Positions 4,083-17,408 of a stretch of DNA of 53,433 bases are shown here, one piece after another. The stretch spans positions 1-53,433 of the forward strand of contig JAVJWO010000105.1 in NCBI GenBank assembly GCA_040222015.1, in the 5' to 3' direction. Position 1 is the stretch's first letter; every line of letters starts with the position of its first letter. The notes beneath the pieces were generated by a model. That model was given only the letters and a program-made list of their open reading frames with translations, searched no databases and had not been told where the DNA came from. A program made the translations under genes and the position numbers. This stretch comes from Coleofasciculus chthonoplastes F2-STO-03. GTDB lineage: Bacteria > Cyanobacteriota > Cyanobacteriia > Cyanobacteriales > Coleofasciculaceae.

Positions 4083-4724
4083 TTACCAACTCTGTCTTTT
4101 GAGCATCTGTTTTATGTCTGCTTCTAGTATTTTAAAGGCAGACAGACTCCGCAGTGCCGAAAAGTCATCGATAAGTTCAGCGATTCGTTGAATCTTCTCT
4201 CGCTCTCTGGCGCGAAATTTCTTTAGTCGCCGACCCGTAAACCCACTTGCTTGACGCAGAAGTTGACAAAGATATTGTTTTGGATCAGGTAACTCCTCAC
4301 ATTTAGAGAGGTTTGGCAAATTTAAAGGTTGCTGTATTCTGGGATTTTCTGCCGCCTTGCGTATGGCAGCTTCATCAAATAATAACCAAGCTTCTGTCAT
4401 CCGCACAGGTACAACACAGATAACCGGCACAGAAACTGATTCCCTGATACCCTCAACGGATTTTTGAATTTCAGAAACTCGTTTCTCACGAGGTTCTTTT
4501 TCGGCATCCCTGTGTATAAATAAAAGGTCGCAAGGGTAAAGGTTCAAACTTAATTCAATTCTCTCTGAGTGATTCAGTGGTTGTTTTGGTAAGCGCCGAA
4601 AATCAGCCCACTGGGACTGGATAGCACATTCAACTCCATGTAATCGCAATAACCAAGTCAGAATAGGTAGTAGCGCTTTGTCGGAACTCCCATCAGATAG
4701 TAATGTGTATCGCAGTTCCTTCAT
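4083..4724 (-). CDS. DUF4276-like (TOPRIM-related) protein, partner of the upstream ATPase
   Basis: N-terminal LLSDGSSD, FIHRDAE, VPVRMTEAWLL, E...DPK motifs; 4-nt ATGA overlap with the ATPase gene. Confidence 0.7.
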   Translation of the reverse strand: MKELRYTLLSDGSSDKALLPILTWLLRLHGVECAIQSQWADFRRLPKQPLNHSERIELSLNLYPCDLLFIHRDAEKEPREKRVSEIQKSVEGIRESVSVPVICVVPVRMTEAWLLFDEAAIRKAAENPRIQQPLNLPNLSKCEELPDPKQYLCQLLRQASGFTGRRLKKFRAREREKIQRIAELIDDFSALRSLSAFKILEADIKQMLKRQSW

Positions 4725-6265
4725 ACAAATTCTTTTGGGAAGCCTAAAATTAGAGGTTGAATGTCTTCTCTATCCAAAACTCTGCGTTTTTTAGACGGGG
4801 TAGGTTTTAAAGATGAGTTGGTTTCCAGTTGTCCATTGCCATTTAGCTCTGACTGTTCTGGAGGAACTGGATTTAAGTACGCGAGAAGTTTACCTAAAGG
4901 AACAGTACTTGTCTTTTCGGTTTCCGCAACTTTAAGGTGTCGCCAAGTATTCGGTAGACAACTAAAACGTACCCCTTTAAACCATTGTCCTGACGGTGAT
5001 TTTTCTTCCTTCAACTCAGCAACCAAAAGACTATCTTCTGGGACTTGCTGTACAACGGCTGGTGAGTGGGTATTGATGATTACTTGGCGTAGGGGATTGT
5101 CTTGATCAACGGTTTCTTCAACATCCGTAGCGATGTCTTGTAGGAGTTCGAGGATCTTCGGGATACGCTCTGGATGAATACCATTTTCAGGTTCCTCTAA
5201 GCACAATAAACCTTGAGCTTCTGGGTCTAATTCCAGTACCGCTAACGCCAAAAAGCGCATTGTTCCATCTGAGAGAGATCGCGCCGGATGGGTTGTACCA
5301 TCTCTAGTTGTAACCATTAATGTGAGCAGTTCGCGACGATCATCCCGCTCTATTGTCACGGCATCAACATCATCTAATAATTGTGCTAAACGACCTGCCA
5401 CTTGAGCATAAACCTGCGCTTCGGCTTCCTGATCAGATTGACGGAGATTTTTTCTCAGCCGTGCCAAATGATAGAGAGTTGAAGCTAGATGAGAGCCATC
5501 TGTTCCTAATTTTGTCGGAGCCGTAAATTCGTCGGGTTGTCGCAAAGAGGAAGGTTCTAGCTGTAGTAACTGCCAAGATTGCATTTCCCGACGTGCCAGT
5601 AGTGCTGTTGGGCTTTCGGCTGCATTGGTCACAGACAGTACAGTTCGAGGGAGATTAACGGCTGAGCGAGCTAAGGCTCTACCGCTGGTTCCGCCGTCTT
5701 GATGAAGTTTAATCACTCGATTTGTCCCCTCCTTTGCTGTAGAAATAAAATAAGGGACTCGGCGCTGTCCTTTCACAGCAGACTTGCGCCAAGTTTTCGC
5801 CTTGTGATTAAATAGCAAATGTTTAGGGGCATCACCAAGATTAATATGAACTAACTCTTCTTTAAGCAGTTCCAGTGATCCTAATGAGCGGAGACTATCA
5901 TCTTGTCGATAAGCTAACTCTATAGAGTAGCGAAGAAAGGTAATGCTAGCTTTGGCAGTTTGTCCTAAATCATCAACGCCTTCACCTGGCACAATCATCT
6001 CAGCTTCAAATGACATCTGTGGAGCATAGTCATTGCCAATCCGATGAAACAGACTACGGACATCTCCTGTTCTACCTCCCTCATCTCGAACAGCTAAAGC
6101 GGCTTCAATTAGAGGAAGATCAGCCAAGGCTGACAGAAACCTGATCGCATCAAACAAGTTAGATTTACCTACACCATTTACACCGGCTATACAAGTAAAT
6201 GAACCAAAGCGGACATCTACATTAACAAGATTTTTAAAGCCAGAAACTTTTAGCCTGGTTAGCAT
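4721..6265 (-). CDS. ABC-type/AAA_21 family ATPase (AbiEii/RecF-like)
   Basis: Walker A GVNGVGKSN, signature LSDGT, Walker B/D-loop LCLEEPENGIHP, H-loop NTHSP. Confidence 0.9.
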   Translation of the reverse strand: MLTRLKVSGFKNLVNVDVRFGSFTCIAGVNGVGKSNLFDAIRFLSALADLPLIEAALAVRDEGGRTGDVRSLFHRIGNDYAPQMSFEAEMIVPGEGVDDLGQTAKASITFLRYSIELAYRQDDSLRSLGSLELLKEELVHINLGDAPKHLLFNHKAKTWRKSAVKGQRRVPYFISTAKEGTNRVIKLHQDGGTSGRALARSAVNLPRTVLSVTNAAESPTALLARREMQSWQLLQLEPSSLRQPDEFTAPTKLGTDGSHLASTLYHLARLRKNLRQSDQEAEAQVYAQVAGRLAQLLDDVDAVTIERDDRRELLTLMVTTRDGTTHPARSLSDGTMRFLALAVLELDPEAQGLLCLEEPENGIHPERIPKILELLQDIATDVEETVDQDNPLRQVIINTHSPAVVQQVPEDSLLVAELKEEKSPSGQWFKGVRFSCLPNTWRHLKVAETEKTSTVPLGKLLAYLNPVPPEQSELNGNGQLETNSSLKPTPSKKRRVLDREDIQPLILGFPKEFV

Positions 6266-8784: not shown

Positions 8785-10833
8785 TTGGAGGTTAATTTCA
8801 TGATGACGGAGTTGTCTGACCCGACAGTTGATAATGAAAAAACGTATGGCGATTTACTGACAGCGATTCAAGCCAGTCAAGGTAAGTTGAGTGTAATCCT
8901 AGCGGTTTGTGATGATATCCATTACCGCAACCAACTGATTGAACGCTATGAAACCGAACTCGCCGCCTCTATGCGATCGCATCGCGTTACCTTGGTTAAG
9001 GATGACCCGAACCTGAGCCACGCCATTACTGAACTTGTCCAAACCAATGACGATTTACGTCAGGGGGGAAACGCTGTTGTCACCGTGACGGGTGCTGAAC
9101 AACTTCTCTGGCTCAAATTCGACGCTCAGCATTCAGAACAGGAAATTTTTTTCGCCTCCTTACCAGAAACCCAAGACGCCTTATCCGCCAAGGCTAGTCC
9201 ACTTATCCTGTGGCTCACTCACCAACTAGAGAGTCAGCTAAGTCAAAATGCTCCAGAGTTCCAAAATTGGTGTCAAGCTGTCTTTTGCTTCCACTCCAAA
9301 AAAACAGCCGCTATTCCCATTCAAAACATTGAGCCATTCCGCCATCTTATCGAAGAAAGCGATGCTTGGGAGCCAAACGTATCAGTCTTTCCCGTCGCCG
9401 ATCTCAACGCCTTGATCGAGTATACCAAAGCCAAACACGGCGTCAACGACCCGAATTTGGCAACCTTATATGCTCAAGTCGGACAAGTTTATCAACGACG
9501 CCTAGAACAGGGTGAATCTCTAAATTATCCCCAAGAACAAGCCTTAGCCGTTGAGTATTTGAGTCAAGCCATTCAGCTAAAAAAAGAACTCGGCTTAGAA
9601 ACAACCTTAGCCGAAACGGTGAATAATCTAGCCGAACTCTACAGGCTGCAAGGACGCTACAGAGAAGCTGAACCCCTTTATTTAGAAGCCTTAGAACTCA
9701 GAAAAAGCTGGTTGGGCGATACTCATCCTGATGTCGCCACCAGCCTCAACAACTTGGCAAAACTTTACCAGGCTCAAGGACATTACGCCCAAGCCGAACC
9801 TCTTTATCTGCAAGCCTTGGACTTGAGGAAACGCTTACTGGGTGATGATCATCCAGATATCGCTCATAGCCTCAATGATTTAGCCACCCTCTATTTTTGT
9901 CAAGGACGCTATGAAGACGCCGAACCCCTTTATCTGCAAACCTTGGACTTGAGGAAACGTAACTTAGGCGAGGAGCATCTGGATGTGGCAACCAGCCTTA
10001 GTAATCTAGGCTTACTTTATCATTATCAAAGACGCTACGAGGATGCTGAACCCCTTTATCTGCAATCCTTAGACATCGAAAAACGTTTGTTGGGCGAAGA
10101 GCATCCAGATGTCGCCACAAGCCTGAACAATCTCGCCGCCCTTTATAAGTCCCAAGGGCGCTATGAGGATGCTGAACCCCTTTATCTGCAAGCCTTGGAC
10201 TTGCAAAAACGCTTATTGGGAGATAACCATCCCGATGTCGCCACCAACCTCAACAACTTAGCCGCCCTCTACTTCTGTCAAGGACGCTACGAGAAAGCCG
10301 AACCCCTCTATCTCCAGGCGTTAGACATTAGAAAACGCTTGTTAGGAGAAAACCATCCCGATGTAGCACAAAGTTTGAATAATTTGGCAGGACTTTACTT
10401 TTCTAAAGGACCCAATAACAAAACCGAATCATTCTATTTAGAAGCGTTAAATATTCGGAAACGCTTATTGGGAGAGAACCATCCGGATGTAGCAACGAGT
10501 CTGAATAATTTAGCATTATTTTATCATTATCAGGGACACTATGACAAAGCCGAACCCCTCTATCTGCAAGCCTTACATTTGAGAAAACGTTTATTGGGGG
10601 ATATCCATCCCGATGTAGTCACCAGTATGAATAATTTGGCATTACTCTACCATTATCAAGGACGCTACGAGCAAGCCGAACCTCTCTATCTCCAAGTATT
10701 GGAACTCGGTAAACGCTTATGGGGAGAAGAGCATCCCGATGTCGCGATCAGTTTAAATAATTTGGCAGCCCTCTATAAGTCTCAAGGACGATACGAACAA
10801 GCTGAATACTTAATGTCCAAGCTATGGAATTGA
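8785..10833 (+). CDS. TPR protein with an N-terminal alpha/beta (degenerate P-loop-like) domain; 3' end probably frameshifted; start may be ATG at 8800
   Basis: About 200-aa N-terminal domain followed by about 10 42-aa TPR repeats paralogous to 6581-8386. Confidence 0.88.
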   Translation: MEVNFMMTELSDPTVDNEKTYGDLLTAIQASQGKLSVILAVCDDIHYRNQLIERYETELAASMRSHRVTLVKDDPNLSHAITELVQTNDDLRQGGNAVVTVTGAEQLLWLKFDAQHSEQEIFFASLPETQDALSAKASPLILWLTHQLESQLSQNAPEFQNWCQAVFCFHSKKTAAIPIQNIEPFRHLIEESDAWEPNVSVFPVADLNALIEYTKAKHGVNDPNLATLYAQVGQVYQRRLEQGESLNYPQEQALAVEYLSQAIQLKKELGLETTLAETVNNLAELYRLQGRYREAEPLYLEALELRKSWLGDTHPDVATSLNNLAKLYQAQGHYAQAEPLYLQALDLRKRLLGDDHPDIAHSLNDLATLYFCQGRYEDAEPLYLQTLDLRKRNLGEEHLDVATSLSNLGLLYHYQRRYEDAEPLYLQSLDIEKRLLGEEHPDVATSLNNLAALYKSQGRYEDAEPLYLQALDLQKRLLGDNHPDVATNLNNLAALYFCQGRYEKAEPLYLQALDIRKRLLGENHPDVAQSLNNLAGLYFSKGPNNKTESFYLEALNIRKRLLGENHPDVATSLNNLALFYHYQGHYDKAEPLYLQALHLRKRLLGDIHPDVVTSMNNLALLYHYQGRYEQAEPLYLQVLELGKRLWGEEHPDVAISLNNLAALYKSQGRYEQAEYLMSKLWN

Positions 10834-10974
10834 GGAACGGTTGATGAGAAGATAAGGCGGACAAGGAAGACAAGGCAGATCAATTACTATTACTATATCC
10901 TTGAGAGAAGCGAAGGGTCAAAACTTACGTCTCTTCGTTGAGCAACATACGGTGAAAAGTAAGAAATATGGACT

Positions 10975-11832
10975 TCAACTTCCAGTATTATTTCTTGAGG
11001 AGAGGTGATCTAAATCAAGCGGATCGCTCTCAACATAATCTTTTGCGGTCATGTCTTCCAAAGACACAACTAAACCATGTACAGATTTAAATCGCCCCGA
11101 TTCAGGGAGTAATTTCAACCATTTTTCCAGATATTGATGCCATTCTTTTTCCTGAAACTGAACCTGTTCTTGATTACGGATAAACCAAAACATCAGTTCA
11201 ATTTCATCAGCATTCCAAGATGGTGCTGCACGTACTCTAATTTCTCGTAAGGCACGAAGGGCATCCCCTTCAACGCTTAATTTATCGTGCTTATCTTGCA
11301 TCCGATTTTGAAGTTTTTGTGCAAATGCAATGAAGTCATCAGGAAAAGCAAATCGAACTCGCTTCCGTGCTAATGCTTGTCCTAATATCCTAACCTCGTC
11401 ATCGTTTTGGCATCCTGGTATACGCTCCCATTCTGCAACAACAGCCTTTTCTACTGTCATCACACGATCAAGATCAGCAACAAGAATAAATTCAGAAACT
11501 CCTGGAATATAGGCATACTGAGGTCGTCTACTTCGTTGGATCTCATACAAACGTTGTTGATTAACCTCTACAAGAGGCACTACCTCTATGAATGGACGAT
11601 CATGGCAAGGACGCACAATATCACATGTTTGTGTAACTACAGCAAAACCATTGACCTCGGATTCTGCAAGGTCAATTTCTTCTTGTGCAAGATTAACAGA
11701 GTCCTCTGTCAAAGGACGTTTAGGATTAAAGCGGTAGAGGAACCAATGTTCTCCAAGAGTACAATCACCTTGACGCCACTCTCTAAGAGCAGCGTCTACT
11801 TCCTGAATCCAAACATCACGTTCATTGCTCAC
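10975..11832 (-). CDS. Hypothetical protein with a PemK/MazF-like N-terminal motif pattern; probable start GTG at 11832 (ORF extends to 11913)
   Basis: WRQGD...FAVVTQTCDI...FIEVVPL...LVADLDRVMTVEK; GTG at 11832 overlaps the end of the upstream HTH gene and is preceded by AAGGAG. Confidence 0.65.
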   Translation of the reverse strand: MSNERDVWIQEVDAALREWRQGDCTLGEHWFLYRFNPKRPLTEDSVNLAQEEIDLAESEVNGFAVVTQTCDIVRPCHDRPFIEVVPLVEVNQQRLYEIQRSRRPQYAYIPGVSEFILVADLDRVMTVEKAVVAEWERIPGCQNDDEVRILGQALARKRVRFAFPDDFIAFAQKLQNRMQDKHDKLSVEGDALRALREIRVRAAPSWNADEIELMFWFIRNQEQVQFQEKEWHQYLEKWLKLLPESGRFKSVHGLVVSLEDMTAKDYVESDPLDLDHLSSRNNTGS

Positions 11833-12514
11833 TACTGTTTCTTCGACTCCTTGCAACTCTGGCTGGTCTGGAGCGTCCAACCTCACGATGGATAGTATCT
11901 TGGAGAGCATCAACTAAATCTGCTGGATTTGGTGGCATACGTGACCTATCGGCATATTTGGATAATGGCTTTAGCTGCGGTTTATCAGGAGCATTACCAA
12001 GACCAAGAATCTGTTTTACCTTTTCGTGTTCACCTGCTACCAGTAAATCAAAAGGAGATCTACCATCACTATCCGGTTTCAACAAGAGACTGCGATTGAG
12101 ACTTGCGCTCCCTCGGTTAATGTACTGAATAGTGTTGAAAAGTTGATCCAGTTTCTGCTTATTAGATTGAGATAGCTGTTGTCCACTTGCCCAAGCATGA
12201 AGACTTCTACGAGAAACATCGAAGAGTTTAGCGAGTTGCTCCCAGGTCAATCCACTCAACTTCCTCAGTTGGTTAACAGCTTTCTGCGTCGTTTCTCTAG
12301 AACCAGTGGACGGTAGAGTCACGCCACTTGTTGTCATGTCCAAAGTAACTAACGCACTGGAAAAAACAGTAGTTATGGAAGCCGTTGTGCTAGAACGATC
12401 TCTAAAAATTCTAGAACAAATAAATGGATTAGGATTAGTATCCAATTTACCCATGGCTCCAAGAGCAGAAGTACGCGATGGCTGAGCGTGTTTTTTTTCT
12501 GCAAGAGTAATCAT
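11822..12514 (-). CDS. XRE-type HTH protein with Xre/MbcA/ParS-like C-terminal segment (putative antitoxin)
   Basis: LRKLSGLTWEQLAKLFDVSRRSLHAWASG helix-turn-helix; GRSPFDLLVAGEHEKVKQIL resembles DUF2384; ATGA overlap with the upstream gene. Confidence 0.72.
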   Translation of the reverse strand: MITLAEKKHAQPSRTSALGAMGKLDTNPNPFICSRIFRDRSSTTASITTVFSSALVTLDMTTSGVTLPSTGSRETTQKAVNQLRKLSGLTWEQLAKLFDVSRRSLHAWASGQQLSQSNKQKLDQLFNTIQYINRGSASLNRSLLLKPDSDGRSPFDLLVAGEHEKVKQILGLGNAPDKPQLKPLSKYADRSRMPPNPADLVDALQDTIHREVGRSRPARVARSRRNSSEQ

Positions 12515-13314
12515 AATTTTCCTCCAAATCGCCGCAAAAATTCATCCTGTACTGCCCATCTGAAGAACGTATAAATTCTCTCAGCAAAATTCTGTGCTTC
12601 ACTTATCAATGCCTCAACACTGAATTCTCGGTTCTTTGACTTTGAAGACATATCTATATCAAGTATCCAGCTCGGTTCATCAATAGGTTCAATTGCATTG
12701 GGATCAAACGTTACATCAGCAGACATTAATCCCCACCTAGCAGCGATAATTTGCTCATCTCCATCGGGAATTATAAACCAAGATTCATTAATAGTCTGAT
12801 AAATATATTTTCTAAACTCAGTAGCGACAATACCAGCTATCTCAGGTTTCACAAGTAACGATATATCCTCAAGTTCTTGACCAACAAGTCGATCGATATA
12901 GCGTAAGCCAAATCGTTCAATAACCTTGGGCTTAAAATTTTCATCGAGTGCTTGTAGCGCGTTTTTAAAACGTTTTAGGAAATCGCTACGACTTGAGTAA
13001 GCTGTTGTTTCTATTGCTAAAAAGTTGGGTGCTAATGAGATTCGCCAACTATTTGTTGTGTCTAAAAATCGCCAAGTTAATTGAGGTGCAGTTTCCACGA
13101 TACCTGGGGAACCCAAAACTAACCCCGGAGTCTGTTCCAGATGTAGGATAGGATATGTTTCTCGAATTGCCTCTTGAAATGAACCCACAAACTCTTTTTT
13201 CTCAATCGAAAGAATAGGTGGAAAGCGCACTTGTGCAATCACTCGCACCAAAGGTGCATCTTTCAACGGTACTTCTTGAGGTGGTTGTGCAATGAGTGGA
13301 TTGGTATTGACCAC
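12511..13314 (-). CDS. TIGR04255 family protein
   Basis: PLKDAPLVRVIAQVRFP, TTAYSSRSDF, RFGLRYIDR, WILDID motifs; 267 aa. Confidence 0.82.
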   Translation of the reverse strand: MVNTNPLIAQPPQEVPLKDAPLVRVIAQVRFPPILSIEKKEFVGSFQEAIRETYPILHLEQTPGLVLGSPGIVETAPQLTWRFLDTTNSWRISLAPNFLAIETTAYSSRSDFLKRFKNALQALDENFKPKVIERFGLRYIDRLVGQELEDISLLVKPEIAGIVATEFRKYIYQTINESWFIIPDGDEQIIAARWGLMSADVTFDPNAIEPIDEPSWILDIDMSSKSKNREFSVEALISEAQNFAERIYTFFRWAVQDEFLRRFGGKL

Positions 13315-13584
13315 TTTCTACATCCTTTTTGGGACTTGAGCGAGAAATTGGGCATAGATTCAGATATGAGAGATACTACGCCTATTGCTATCGTAGAGCA
13401 AAAGTGTGAAGTAGAGTGTGAAGTTTAAGAAATGTAAAGCTTAAAGGTTTTTCTGTAGAGTATTGAGCCATAGAGAAAAATTAGAGGCAATCCAATATCC
13501 ACAGCACTTCCAGCATACCCGTTAAAAATAGACGGTTGCGATCGCACGTCCTATAATTGCCAGTAAAACTCAGGATCAACAGAC

Positions 13585-15114
13585 ATGCTTGCCAGGGTTT
13601 GGAGTGCTTCGCTAGTTGGCATCGATGCGGTGAAAGTCGGTGTTGAAGTCGATGTGTCGGGCGGACTACCGGGAATTGTCGTTGTGGGATTACCCGATAC
13701 CGCCGTCCAAGAATCGCGAGAACGGGTGAGGGCGGCGTTAAAAAATGCCGGGTTTGTCTTCCCGATGCGGAAAATTGTGATTAATCTCACTCCCGCCGAC
13801 TTACGCAAAGAAGGACCCAGCTTTGATTTACCCATTAGTGTGGGAATTCTCGCCGCCTCGCAACAAGTCAATCCTGAATTATTAGGCGATTATCTATTTT
13901 TAGGCGAAGTCTCCTTGGATGGCAATTTACGCCCCATTGCGGGAGTCTTACCCATCGCCGCCGCCGCCCAAAGTTTGGGGATTTCTGGGTTAGTTGTACC
14001 CGCTGATAATGCCCAAGAAGCCGCCGTGGTGCGTGGACTCGCGGTTTACGGATTCCAACATCTGGCTGATGTAGCAGATTTCTTGAACCAACCCGAACGC
14101 TATTCCCCGGTAGCGATGGATGAATTCCCTCAATCATCCTCCTATCCGTTTACAGGCGGAAACTTAAACGAAGTCAAAGGTCAATCCCATGCGCGTCGGG
14201 CGTTAGAAATTGCCGCAGCCGGAGGTCATAATTTAATTTTCGTCGGTCCACCGGGAAGCGGTAAAACCATGCTAGCGCGACGATTACCGGGGATTTTACC
14301 ACCCTTGAGTTTTGAAGAAGCCCTGGAAGTCACCCAAATCTATTCTGTAGCTGGATTACTCAAAGATAAAGGCAGATTAATCAGATATCGCCCCTTCCGC
14401 AGTCCCCACCATTCTGCCTCAGGTCCATCATTAGTTGGGGGTGGTAGTTTTCCTCGTCCTGGAGAAATTTCCTTGGCGCATCGAGGGGTATTATTTCTGG
14501 ATGAATTAACCGAATTTAAGCGCAATGTATTGGAATTTTTGCGCCAACCATTAGAAGATGGTTATGTGACCATTTCTCGCACCCGACAATCCGTCTTGTT
14601 TCCGGCACAATTTACCTTAGTTGCTAGTACTAATCCCTGTCCCTGTGGTTACTTTGGCGATACCCTGCAACCCTGCACCTGTTCAGCGCGACAACGGGAG
14701 AACTATTGGGCAAAACTTTCTGGTCCACTCATGGATCGGATAGATTTACAAGTTGCGGTAAATCGCCTCAAACCCGAAGAGATTACTCGACAACCCCAAA
14801 GCGAAGCGTCAGAAGCCGTAAGGGAGAGAGTCAAAGTAGCCCGCGATCGCACTCGTCATCGCTTCAACTCAGAACCCTCCCTACGCTGCAATGCCCAGAT
14901 GCAAAGTAGTCATTTGAGACAATGGTGTCATTTAGATGATAGTAGTCGCAATCTTTTAGAAGGGGCAATTCGCAAACTCGGACTCTCTGCCCGGGCAAGC
15001 GATCGCATCCTCAAAGTCGCCCGCACAATTGCCGATTTATCGGGGGCTGAAACGTTGCAAATGTCACACATTGCTGAAGCTATTCAATATCGCACCATTG
15101 ATCGTATGCAGTAA
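13585..15114 (+). CDS. comM: YifB/ComM Mg-chelatase-like AAA+ ATPase
   Basis: VVGLPDTAVQESRERV, KEGPSFDLPI, GPPGSGKTMLARRL, RSPHHSAS, LFLDELTEF, NPCPCG. Confidence 0.93.
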   Translation: MLARVWSASLVGIDAVKVGVEVDVSGGLPGIVVVGLPDTAVQESRERVRAALKNAGFVFPMRKIVINLTPADLRKEGPSFDLPISVGILAASQQVNPELLGDYLFLGEVSLDGNLRPIAGVLPIAAAAQSLGISGLVVPADNAQEAAVVRGLAVYGFQHLADVADFLNQPERYSPVAMDEFPQSSSYPFTGGNLNEVKGQSHARRALEIAAAGGHNLIFVGPPGSGKTMLARRLPGILPPLSFEEALEVTQIYSVAGLLKDKGRLIRYRPFRSPHHSASGPSLVGGGSFPRPGEISLAHRGVLFLDELTEFKRNVLEFLRQPLEDGYVTISRTRQSVLFPAQFTLVASTNPCPCGYFGDTLQPCTCSARQRENYWAKLSGPLMDRIDLQVAVNRLKPEEITRQPQSEASEAVRERVKVARDRTRHRFNSEPSLRCNAQMQSSHLRQWCHLDDSSRNLLEGAIRKLGLSARASDRILKVARTIADLSGAETLQMSHIAEAIQYRTIDRMQ

Positions 15115-15253: not shown

Positions 15254-16429
15254 ATGACAAATGACATCTGTACAACCGTTGAGTTATTTTGCGGGATTGG
15301 AGGATTCCGGATTGCGGCGGATCAGAGAAATATAGGCACAATCTGGGCAAATGATCGTTGTCCGAAAGCCTGTCAAGTATACCGCGATCGCTTTAGAGAG
15401 ACATCATTATATCCCGGTGATATTTATCAAATCGTTGATGAAATTCCACCTCACGATCTGTTAACGGCTGGTTTTCCCTGTCAACCGTTCAGTAGTGCTG
15501 GCAAAAAAAAGGGAGTACGAGATCCACGCGGTCATATTTTTCAAGTGATTATTGATGTCCTGCAAAGACACAAGCCCAAGTTTTTTATCTTAGAGAATGT
15601 TAAACGCTTGCTGTCTATGGAGGAAGGGACGCATTTTGCCACGATCCTCAATGAGTTAGCGAATTTAGACTATAGAATTGAGTGGCGTTTGATCAACGCT
15701 ATGCATTTTGGTTTACCCCAAAATCGCCAGCGAGTCGTCATTTTAGGTGCTTTAGAAAAGGATACACAGGATAATTTTCCCAATATCCGACTCGCCTCAA
15801 CTGAAAATATCGCTGAGTTATCCGACTCAATGTTTCAAACCTTGACTAATGTTGAATGGTGGAAAAGAATCAAAGACCATGGCACTAGATTTACGACGTG
15901 GGGACTCGCCCAAACAGGTCGTTTTTTCGGCTACAATTTTGCTCAATTTTATCCAGCTACACCCATTTTACCTTTACGGGCAGTTCTTGAGTCAGATGTC
16001 GATTGCCAATTTGATTTTACTGAGTCCACATTAAACCGTTTAACAAACAGTACCCCAGTTAATGATTTTGTTCAAGGTGTACAAATTCTCTATAATCAAA
16101 GTGGGGGAGCGCGAATGGGTTACACCGTATTTGGCATTGATGGTGTTTCACCGACACTTACCTCAACAACGAGTCGGCACTATGAGCGTTATAAAATTGG
16201 CAATCAGTTCCGCCGTCTGACTAATGTAGAATATGCTCGCATTCAGGGCTTTCCAGATGAACATTGTGCGGGGATATCTATCTATGATCAATATGCTCTT
16301 TTCGGAAATGCCATTCCCCCGGTTATGGCTGGGTGGGTTATGGATTGTATCTTAGAAAATAAGATCGTCCAACTCAAAACACCTAAATTTGAACAATTAT
16401 CACTTTTCTCTATAACCGATGCTTGCTAA
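15254..16429 (+). CDS. DNA (cytosine-5)-methyltransferase
   Basis: Motif I ELFCGIGG, IV GFPCQPFS, VI ENVK, VIII QNRQRV, IX RRLT..EYARIQGFPD, X GNAIPP. Confidence 0.95.
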   Translation: MTNDICTTVELFCGIGGFRIAADQRNIGTIWANDRCPKACQVYRDRFRETSLYPGDIYQIVDEIPPHDLLTAGFPCQPFSSAGKKKGVRDPRGHIFQVIIDVLQRHKPKFFILENVKRLLSMEEGTHFATILNELANLDYRIEWRLINAMHFGLPQNRQRVVILGALEKDTQDNFPNIRLASTENIAELSDSMFQTLTNVEWWKRIKDHGTRFTTWGLAQTGRFFGYNFAQFYPATPILPLRAVLESDVDCQFDFTESTLNRLTNSTPVNDFVQGVQILYNQSGGARMGYTVFGIDGVSPTLTSTTSRHYERYKIGNQFRRLTNVEYARIQGFPDEHCAGISIYDQYALFGNAIPPVMAGWVMDCILENKIVQLKTPKFEQLSLFSITDAC

Positions 16430-17408
16430 AGAAGAATTACGCGCTAGATTAAGAGAATCACTGGATACAACAATTCAGGAAGTGAATCGCGCTCTAAAGG
16501 GAGAAAACACGGAACAATTAGCAGACGTATTAACTCGTGTGGGACGAGGAGGAAAACTTCCAAAATGGTATGAGCAGTTACGAACTCAGCACACATTGCC
16601 CAACTTAGATGGTAAGACAATTGGTAGTGTTATTGAAATGTTGTTAATCGCGGTACTCGAAAAGATTATATTTCAAGGTCTTGAGATACCGCCATTACGG
16701 GTTAATCCAGCGCGAGGAGTGGACTTTCCTGATTTTGATCTGGGTATTAAATCCCCTTCAGAAAACTACTGCACCAGCGAACCCTTTTTCTCAGCTTATG
16801 AAAGATTACTCGGTTCTGAGTATGATGTCCTTGTTCTGCTCACTGACTACCAGACTGCCAAGAAAAAGCCACCATTGAGACTGCAAATTATTAAATTTAA
16901 GTACCTATACAAAACTCAGCTAGCGGATTATCGACTTTGCCAAATTGCTAAAAAGCATCGGGAATGGTTGGTGACAGAAAACGAATCTTGGGCAAAGAAG
17001 GTGTTTCGATTTCTGGCGTATGTCAATCAAAGTGACTGGCGTGCCAAGCAACTCCTGCGTTTGCTCGACTGTCTTCAGGATGTGACATTGGTACACCGTT
17101 ATATTCAGCAAGCGGATAAAGATTTTCAGAAAATTAATGAAAAACGCATTGCCAAAGATGCTGAACCCATTCCCCGATCAGATATTGAATCATTACAAAA
17201 AATAAACTCTATTCAGCCTTTTTATCTGGGTGTTATCGATGCGGCTGATAATTGGGTGATCGAGATGCAGAAGGATTTGGCGCGATTTCCTAATAGCAAT
17301 GAATGGTCACGTCTTTTGACCAGTCCGTTGGATGGTCAAATTGGTATGAGTCCTGCGTTGCAGTGGCGATATAATTTCAGTCGCGTTTTTGGTATGACTC
17401 AATCTTGA
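16419..17408 (+). CDS. Putative type II restriction endonuclease (PD-(D/E)xK-like)
   Basis: Overlaps the MTase gene by 11 nt; KTIGSVIE helix and RGVDFPDFDLGIKS catalytic-like motif; assignment mainly from context. Confidence 0.6.
   Translation: MLAKEELRARLRESLDTTIQEVNRALKGENTEQLADVLTRVGRGGKLPKWYEQLRTQHTLPNLDGKTIGSVIEMLLIAVLEKIIFQGLEIPPLRVNPARGVDFPDFDLGIKSPSENYCTSEPFFSAYERLLGSEYDVLVLLTDYQTAKKKPPLRLQIIKFKYLYKTQLADYRLCQIAKKHREWLVTENESWAKKVFRFLAYVNQSDWRAKQLLRLLDCLQDVTLVHRYIQQADKDFQKINEKRIAKDAEPIPRSDIESLQKINSIQPFYLGVIDAADNWVIEMQKDLARFPNSNEWSRLLTSPLDGQIGMSPALQWRYNFSRVFGMTQS

Follow-up and report, generated by a model that had tools for sequence, protein, structure and literature searches.

A mobile three-gene cassette of Coleofasciculus chthonoplastes as one instance of a TIGR04255-built family with a putative variant tripartite toxin-antitoxin design

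A small accessory cassette in the genome of Coleofasciculus chthonoplastes F2-STO-03, within the 53,433-nt stretch analyzed here (the window), is a real, mobile and conserved operon composed of a TIGR04255 protein (gene 1), a putative antitoxin (gene 2) and a putative effector with a MazF-type fold (gene 3). It belongs to a more extensive family, so far undescribed, that centers on TIGR04255 and whose organization points to a variant tripartite toxin-antitoxin design. The reading we favor, at slightly less than an even chance, is that the cassette would be a system resembling toxin-antitoxin-chaperone (TAC) modules in mirror image, probably acting in abortive antiphage defense.

A first-pass annotation of the sequence had proposed three translationally coupled minus-strand genes at this locus. 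All three ORFs were found (Table 1), along with the ATGA overlap of genes 1 and 2 at 12511–12514 and an 11-nt overlap between the GTG start of gene 3 and the end of gene 2, which is the most frequent spacing among homologues. The block is richer in AT than comM, as had been noted: comM has a GC content of 49.7% and the window as a whole 46.1%, whereas the block has only 41.5%, a value as low as in just 2% of 511 segments of the same length, and its GC3 is 27–31% versus 43–46% in both flanking genes. The absence of HIP1 sites from the block was also seen correctly but fails as a sign of acquisition, as finding none against 1.8 expected is not beyond chance (P ~0.16) and carries no weight given that 18% of segments of this length are likewise free of HIP1. 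Promoter and terminator scans of the locus showed no excess over shuffled sequences and no promoter facing the operon.

Table 1. Features of the cassette and its borders (window coordinates)
Feature	Position	Strand	Remarks
Gene 1: TIGR04255 protein, putative controller	12511..13314	-	GTG start, 267 aa
Gene 2: putative antitoxin	11822..12514	-	ATG start, 230 aa; from the N-terminus: arm, XRE-HTH, helical segment resembling MbcA, conserved tail
Gene 3: putative toxin/effector	10975..11832	-	GTG start, 285 aa; frame open to 11913
N-terminal arm of gene 2, rich in S/T and with little conservation	12299..12514	-	~residues 1–72
Gene 3 MazF/PemK/CcdB-fold domain	11347..11790	-	residues 15–162
Gene 3 C-terminal domain, minimal-nucleotidyltransferase (MNT)-like shape	11002..11346	-	residues 163–277; without GS and DxD motifs
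Accessory cassette, ~2.64 kb, in the interval from TPR-repeat gene to comM	10884..13524	-	congener comparison
TPR-repeat gene, convergent flank, outside cassette	8785..10833	+	repeats seen in translation; conserved in congeners
comM/Mg-chelatase-like gene, divergent flank, outside cassette	13585..15114	+	Pfam Mg_chelatase, ChlI
HIP1 site, 13 bases beyond the promoter-side border of the cassette	13538..13545	+	variable slot stops just short in all congeners read

Comparison with eight genomes of the same genus supported a recent gain or loss. Two of them have the whole cassette (G806, G808), a third shows part of it where a contig ends (G807), and in three more it is absent between joined flanks (G802, G803, G809); the remaining two (G804, G805) are not decidable. 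In G809 the flanks are intact and joined at a precise empty site, which sets the cassette borders at ~10884 and ~13524, while G802 and G803 carry ~100 bp of other DNA in its place. The DNA upstream of comM varies at five congener loci (including L113, L114, L117 and L118; window 13525–13545), and the sequence they share there starts no more than ~13 bases from one same HIP1 site, delimiting a HIP1-bounded variable slot. Farther afield, all four plasmids read, of six matched, carry the triad (Chroococcidiopsis, Sphingomonas, Rhizobium and Kocuria, representing three phyla), two of these copies adjoining integrases or a relaxase. The triad is also present on both of two viral-collection contigs, and an unannotated record of a P2-family phage ends in a triad of another type (R..S..H, see below). 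Gene 3 had no match among 50,697 annotated phages, and a second scan of the viral collection using a distant homologue as query found nothing. Elsewhere in the window, beyond comM, a C5 DNA methylase gene followed by an overlapping 329-aa gene that matches no family (15254–17408, GC 41–42%) is probably a type II restriction-modification pair, and an AAA_21/AAA_15 ATPase gene, AbiEii/PARIS-like by Pfam family, occupies 4721–6265 upstream of the TPR genes.

The three-gene synteny is conserved, as had been proposed: all three genes occur in order at 21 of 22 related loci, the 22nd having no upstream DNA. Gene 3 is interrupted by transposases at three of the 22, with genes 1 and 2 whole there, and gene 2 is broken at none. 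At L020, where genes 2 and 3 are whole, gene 1 is missing the initial 93 positions of the profile, and L136 holds an antitoxin and a long effector with no TIGR04255 gene; both loci suggest that the controller may be dispensable. Among 76 chosen flanking proteins from 17 loci, a set with no control for defense-island enrichment, several are of defense type (HepT, helicase-DUF2290, GmrSD with HEPN, RloB, type I restriction, Uma2 and pYEATS) and many are housekeeping proteins.

Gene 1 belongs to TIGR04255, to which it had been assigned at first pass, with an E-value of 7.8e-47 and a score of 160 bits against a curated cutoff of 30. Its predicted shape, in which helices accompany a curved antiparallel sheet, appears nearest to the glutamine-synthetase/guanido-kinase fold; the structural matches listed include guanido kinases (the best) and their relatives, AdoMetDC, TBP and others, and none of those listed is SecB. 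Nothing interpretable came from a viral structure library, whose matches were one unnamed protein (TM 0.46) and others resembling TBP, and a sequence search of solved structures returned nothing significant. Complex prediction for genes 1 and 2 scored 0.01 against a mark of 0.32, and counts neither way. Rather than a holdase, TIGR04255 could be an enzyme of the glutamine-synthetase/guanido-kinase fold, acting as a kinase or ligase on the S/T-rich arm of gene 2 or on the toxin and thereby switching the pair on or off, but we regard this as unlikely. No mention of TIGR04255 was found in the full-text literature searched, a body that excludes most subscription papers, nor in the accessible supplements of PMC9122126, PMC13586616 and PMC13069673. 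The same literature yielded no description of the triad; a member that has been tested could be present in the supplements of other large defense screens or of bioRxiv reports. The three-hypothetical-gene system of PMC9122126, in the portion available, was compared by eye and has none of the triad's motifs.

Gene 2 had been described as an XRE HTH joined to a DUF2384-like segment. The HTH_3 match (E 2.8e-6, residues 82–127) is shared by the family, as HTH_3 and Xre-like-HTH are present in 27 of 29 members, and the family profile (positions 85–165, the HTH and following helices) matches MbcA (6fkg_C) with an E-value of 0.0018. An MbcA-like HTH with its C-terminal segment is thereby supported, whereas Pfam PF09722 (DUF2384) itself matched none of the 29. 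In the alignment, a poorly conserved arm of ~72 residues precedes the HTH and a conserved 60-aa C-terminal tail poor in aromatics ends the protein. Serine and threonine make up 27% of the first 60 residues, in agreement with the S/T-rich N-terminal extension of ~75 aa noted earlier. Enrichment of this kind recurs at the start of gene-2 proteins of unrelated types: those of TIGR04255 triads have unlike folds and sizes of 94–242 aa, and over 41 chosen proteins, kin among them not being independent, S/T content is 19.8% in the first 60 residues versus 13.1% in the rest, with 11.8% in the N-termini of gene-3 proteins. A shared [ST][ST][SGA] arm motif was considered and rejected, as its occurrence in 22 of 41 is not above a shuffle mean of 19.

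The four motifs from which gene 3 had been called an enlarged MazF/PemK protein were all located, in the order expected of that family: WRQGD (19–23), AVVTQTCD (64–71), IEVVPL (82–87) and ADLDRVMTVEK (119–129). Gene 3 falls in no Pfam, NCBIfam or PADLOC family and has no significant match to solved structures by sequence; its relatives number 2494 at 90% clustering and 1201 at 50%. In a structure model with a pLDDT of 94.3, the first domain adopts the MazF/PemK/CcdB-type fold, an SH3-like barrel with a C-terminal helix. The assignment thus holds at the level of fold but not at that of the Pfam signature, as PF02452 (PemK) matched none of 116 family members at E 0.05 and comparison of the family profile with canonical PemK gave 0.1%. 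V60-x-G62 and P86-L87-V88 occupy the expected sites of MazF motifs, placed by motif order rather than by residue-level structural alignment, and the invariant set of the domain is Q21, D23, G62, C70 and R160, with an invariant Cys-Asp pair (C70-D71) unlike MazF. MazF catalysis depends on an Arg, within an RP motif, and a Thr. Neither the Arg-Pro nor the Thr motif was seen in the 116 homologues, and because these catalytic motifs seem absent, an RNase activity for gene 3 can only be called putative. An extra C-terminal domain of ~120 aa had been predicted; it measures ~115 aa and its modeled shape resembles that of MNT proteins. MNT nucleotidyltransferases carry a GS...DxD catalytic motif. In gene 3 both GS and DxD are absent: across the 116 aligned rows neither a Gly nor an acidic pair is conserved. 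Gene 3 combines a MazF-fold and an MNT-like domain in an architecture that is itself new, and its conserved residues are not those of MazF.

TIGR04255 was detected in 48 of 401 cyanobacterial genomes, its own included, and in 32 of 401 genomes of a second phylum, that of an alphaproteobacterial locus. The best-scoring 59 of the 93 matches outside the source genome were read as loci: in 57 of them TIGR04255 opens a coupled triad, and two were not assignable. The third genes of the 57 are short MazF-like (21), R..S..H type (17), long MazF-like (10), a second R..S..H type, in which gene 2 is HEAT-like (4), His/Cys papain-like (4) and canonical PemK (1; L068, Pfam E 1e-18). Six of the ten long MazF-like proteins resemble that of the window, and among the four remote ones only one matches the C-terminal domain significantly. 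From their motifs, judged by eye, we take the R..S..H proteins to be ADP-ribosyltransferase-like and the His/Cys proteins papain-like, labels with no library confirmation; the R..S..H effectors had no significant match to solved structures by sequence. By these assignments there would be at least six effector kinds: long and short MazF-like, PemK, two ADP-ribosyltransferase-like and papain-like, the last three recognized by eye. In a quick tree built from 72 TIGR04255 proteins (two of 74 rows, without a label, were omitted), the six third-gene labels require 11 changes versus a minimum of 5, indicating that partners have been exchanged repeatedly. PADLOC returned two single weak matches over the 74 members.

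Several loci from this survey have features of their own. The third genes of L062, L063, L064 and L066 (213–233 aa) share invariant Q-H-G, LAWH and LTC motifs, have no Pfam match and look papain-like by eye. At L068 (2801–3721), the PemK triad directly precedes a DNA-methylase-like gene with a DUF1156-type motif by eye. First genes of 242–308 aa at L104, L134 and L137 are missed by the profile but by eye bear a remote likeness to TIGR04255, and the HMM may understate the extent of the family. A MazF-like profile matched 18 of 401 genomes, ten of which were its own training loci. The eight new loci comprise one with TIGR04255 by profile, two with a similar first gene by eye only, two contig ends, one fragment, one antitoxin with a long effector and no TIGR04255, and one MazF-like gene before a helicase.

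The closest known design is TAC (HigBAC, MqsRAC, CmdTAC), with which the cassette shares three coupled genes, toxin-like and antitoxin-like members, a constant component common to unrelated toxin-antitoxin pairs and an extra low-complexity segment on the antitoxin. TAC modules, in the part of the account available, run in the order toxin-antitoxin-chaperone; their chaperone is SecB-like, and the antitoxin carries at its C-terminus an aromatic ChAD through which it depends on the chaperone (10.1101/2024.02.24.581848). In the window, by contrast, the order is controller-antitoxin-toxin, with TIGR04255 first in all triads read; the variable arm of the antitoxin is N-terminal and S/T-rich, its C-terminal tail being conserved with few aromatics; and the 267-aa controller is matched to guanido kinases and not, among the matches listed, to SecB. 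The resemblance to TAC suggested at first pass accordingly holds for the three coupled genes, but the order is reversed and the arm sits at the other end, and the cassette is not filed as a TAC because the order differs and likeness to SecB and ChAD is unproven. The MazF-type fold is shared with MazEF/PemIK, which differ in lacking the fused MNT-like domain and the third gene and in pairing with AbrB or RHH antitoxins rather than an XRE-HTH/MbcA-like one. MbcTA, RES-Xre and ParST have an antitoxin of the same XRE-HTH and MbcA-like helical build, but there the partner is RES instead of a MazF-fold protein, and the ~72-aa arm and 60-aa tail are additions. HEPN-MNT modules share the MNT-like shape; in gene 3 this domain is fused to a putative toxin, without GS, DxD or a HEPN partner.

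In type II Gabija (Liu-DS1; GajC and GajB), the MazF-like GajC is required for defense, has a helicase partner and bears a helical insertion (PMC13069673), whereas gene 3 has a C-terminal MNT-like domain. At L139 (1429–3166), adjoining an integrase, a MazF-like protein is followed by a helicase with a Walker A motif near residue 265. This protein shares the QG...CD motifs of the gene 3 family (hhalign 80%), and from its type II Gabija-like layout we infer that it may be GajC, whose sequence was not found in the accessible supplement of PMC13069673. The three window proteins matched no system in PADLOC-DB 2.0.0 apart from an HTH-level match to RmrA (E 0.0019), in keeping with the operon having been called undescribed. 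The C-terminal domain of protein A and protein B of the PADLOC candidate PDC-M32 resemble genes 2 and 3 of another TIGR04255 triad type (E down to 6e-8), and do not match the window's own proteins. A TIGR04255-antitoxin fusion was sought in PDC-M32A and not found, its N-terminal part not being TIGR04255. TIGR04255 accompanies PDC-M32-like pairs by profile at two of 16 loci read; as these pairs also occur without it, the pairs appear to be modules and TIGR04255 an add-on, like SecB in TAC. At L090–L094 the translations show PDC-M32A/B pairs flanked by the genes for the M and S subunits of type I restriction. At L107 (129–1391) a short gene of another kind occupies the first slot before a PDC-M32-like pair, which suggests that other controllers can fill the TIGR04255 position.

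These comparisons lead us to a model in which gene 3 would be the effector, a MazF/CcdB-fold protein of proposed toxicity, and its dead MNT-like domain would have a structural or regulatory role. By family likeness, gene 2 would repress the operon through its HTH and hold the effector by way of either the MbcA-like segment or the C-terminal tail. Gene 1 would be a dedicated controller common to many unrelated toxin-antitoxin pairs, most likely binding the variable S/T-rich arm along the groove that its curved sheet forms and stabilizing the antitoxin; as in TAC, a trigger such as a phage protein would divert the controller, the antitoxin would be lost and the effector would arrest the cell. 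This mirror-image TAC reading draws on the fixed, coupled gene order, partner exchange, the S/T enrichment of the arms, the transposase interruptions of gene 3 where genes 1 and 2 are whole, patchy presence in congeners, PDC-M32 kinship, the Gabija-like layout at L139 and the P2-family phage triad. Counted against it are the MazF motifs not seen, loci L136 and L020, the lack of a shared arm motif, the many housekeeping flanks and the lack of a gene 3 match in annotated phages.

The cassette could also be read as an addiction or stress-response toxin-antitoxin unit with no phage role, in which TIGR04255 tunes antitoxin level or operon expression. Plasmid copies next to integrases and a relaxase, the patchy, low-GC and self-contained character of the cassette, its MbcA-like antitoxin and several plain housekeeping flanks fit such a unit, but exchange among six effector kinds, kinship with the PADLOC candidate and the type II Gabija-like pair, and defense-type neighbors at several loci (helicase-DUF2290, GmrSD-HEPN, RloB, type I restriction) fit conflict better, leaving this alternative improbable, on a par with an enzymatic TIGR04255. 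Least likely of all is a non-toxic gene 3, its MazF-fold serving for binding or regulation, as it does in MazF-like proteins of the anti-sigma type, within a small signaling unit, which the seeming absence of both MazF and MNT catalytic motifs, the occurrence of the fold in the non-RNase CcdB and the C70-D71 pair unlike MazF would allow, but against which stand the canonical PemK in the third slot of L068, the ADP-ribosyltransferase-like and papain-like motifs (by eye) found in that slot elsewhere and the fact that gene 3 is the one most often broken.

At the level of the family, TIGR04255 might define a widespread undescribed tripartite class of toxin or defense systems, running parallel to SecB-based TAC but independent of it, in which a controller of kinase/ligase-like fold reads or modifies an S/T-rich N-terminal arm grafted onto unrelated antitoxins and thereby subjects at least six effector kinds to a common trigger; we put this forward tentatively, as a possibility well short of even. 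The cassette may represent an undescribed way of keeping toxins or antivirus effectors under control. If TIGR04255 controls toxin-antitoxin pairs, a large unnamed family would gain a function, a second route to the TAC design would exist with another fold and a reversed layout, and TIGR04255 would be a marker leading simultaneously to several families of toxins and antitoxins that are as yet unannotated.
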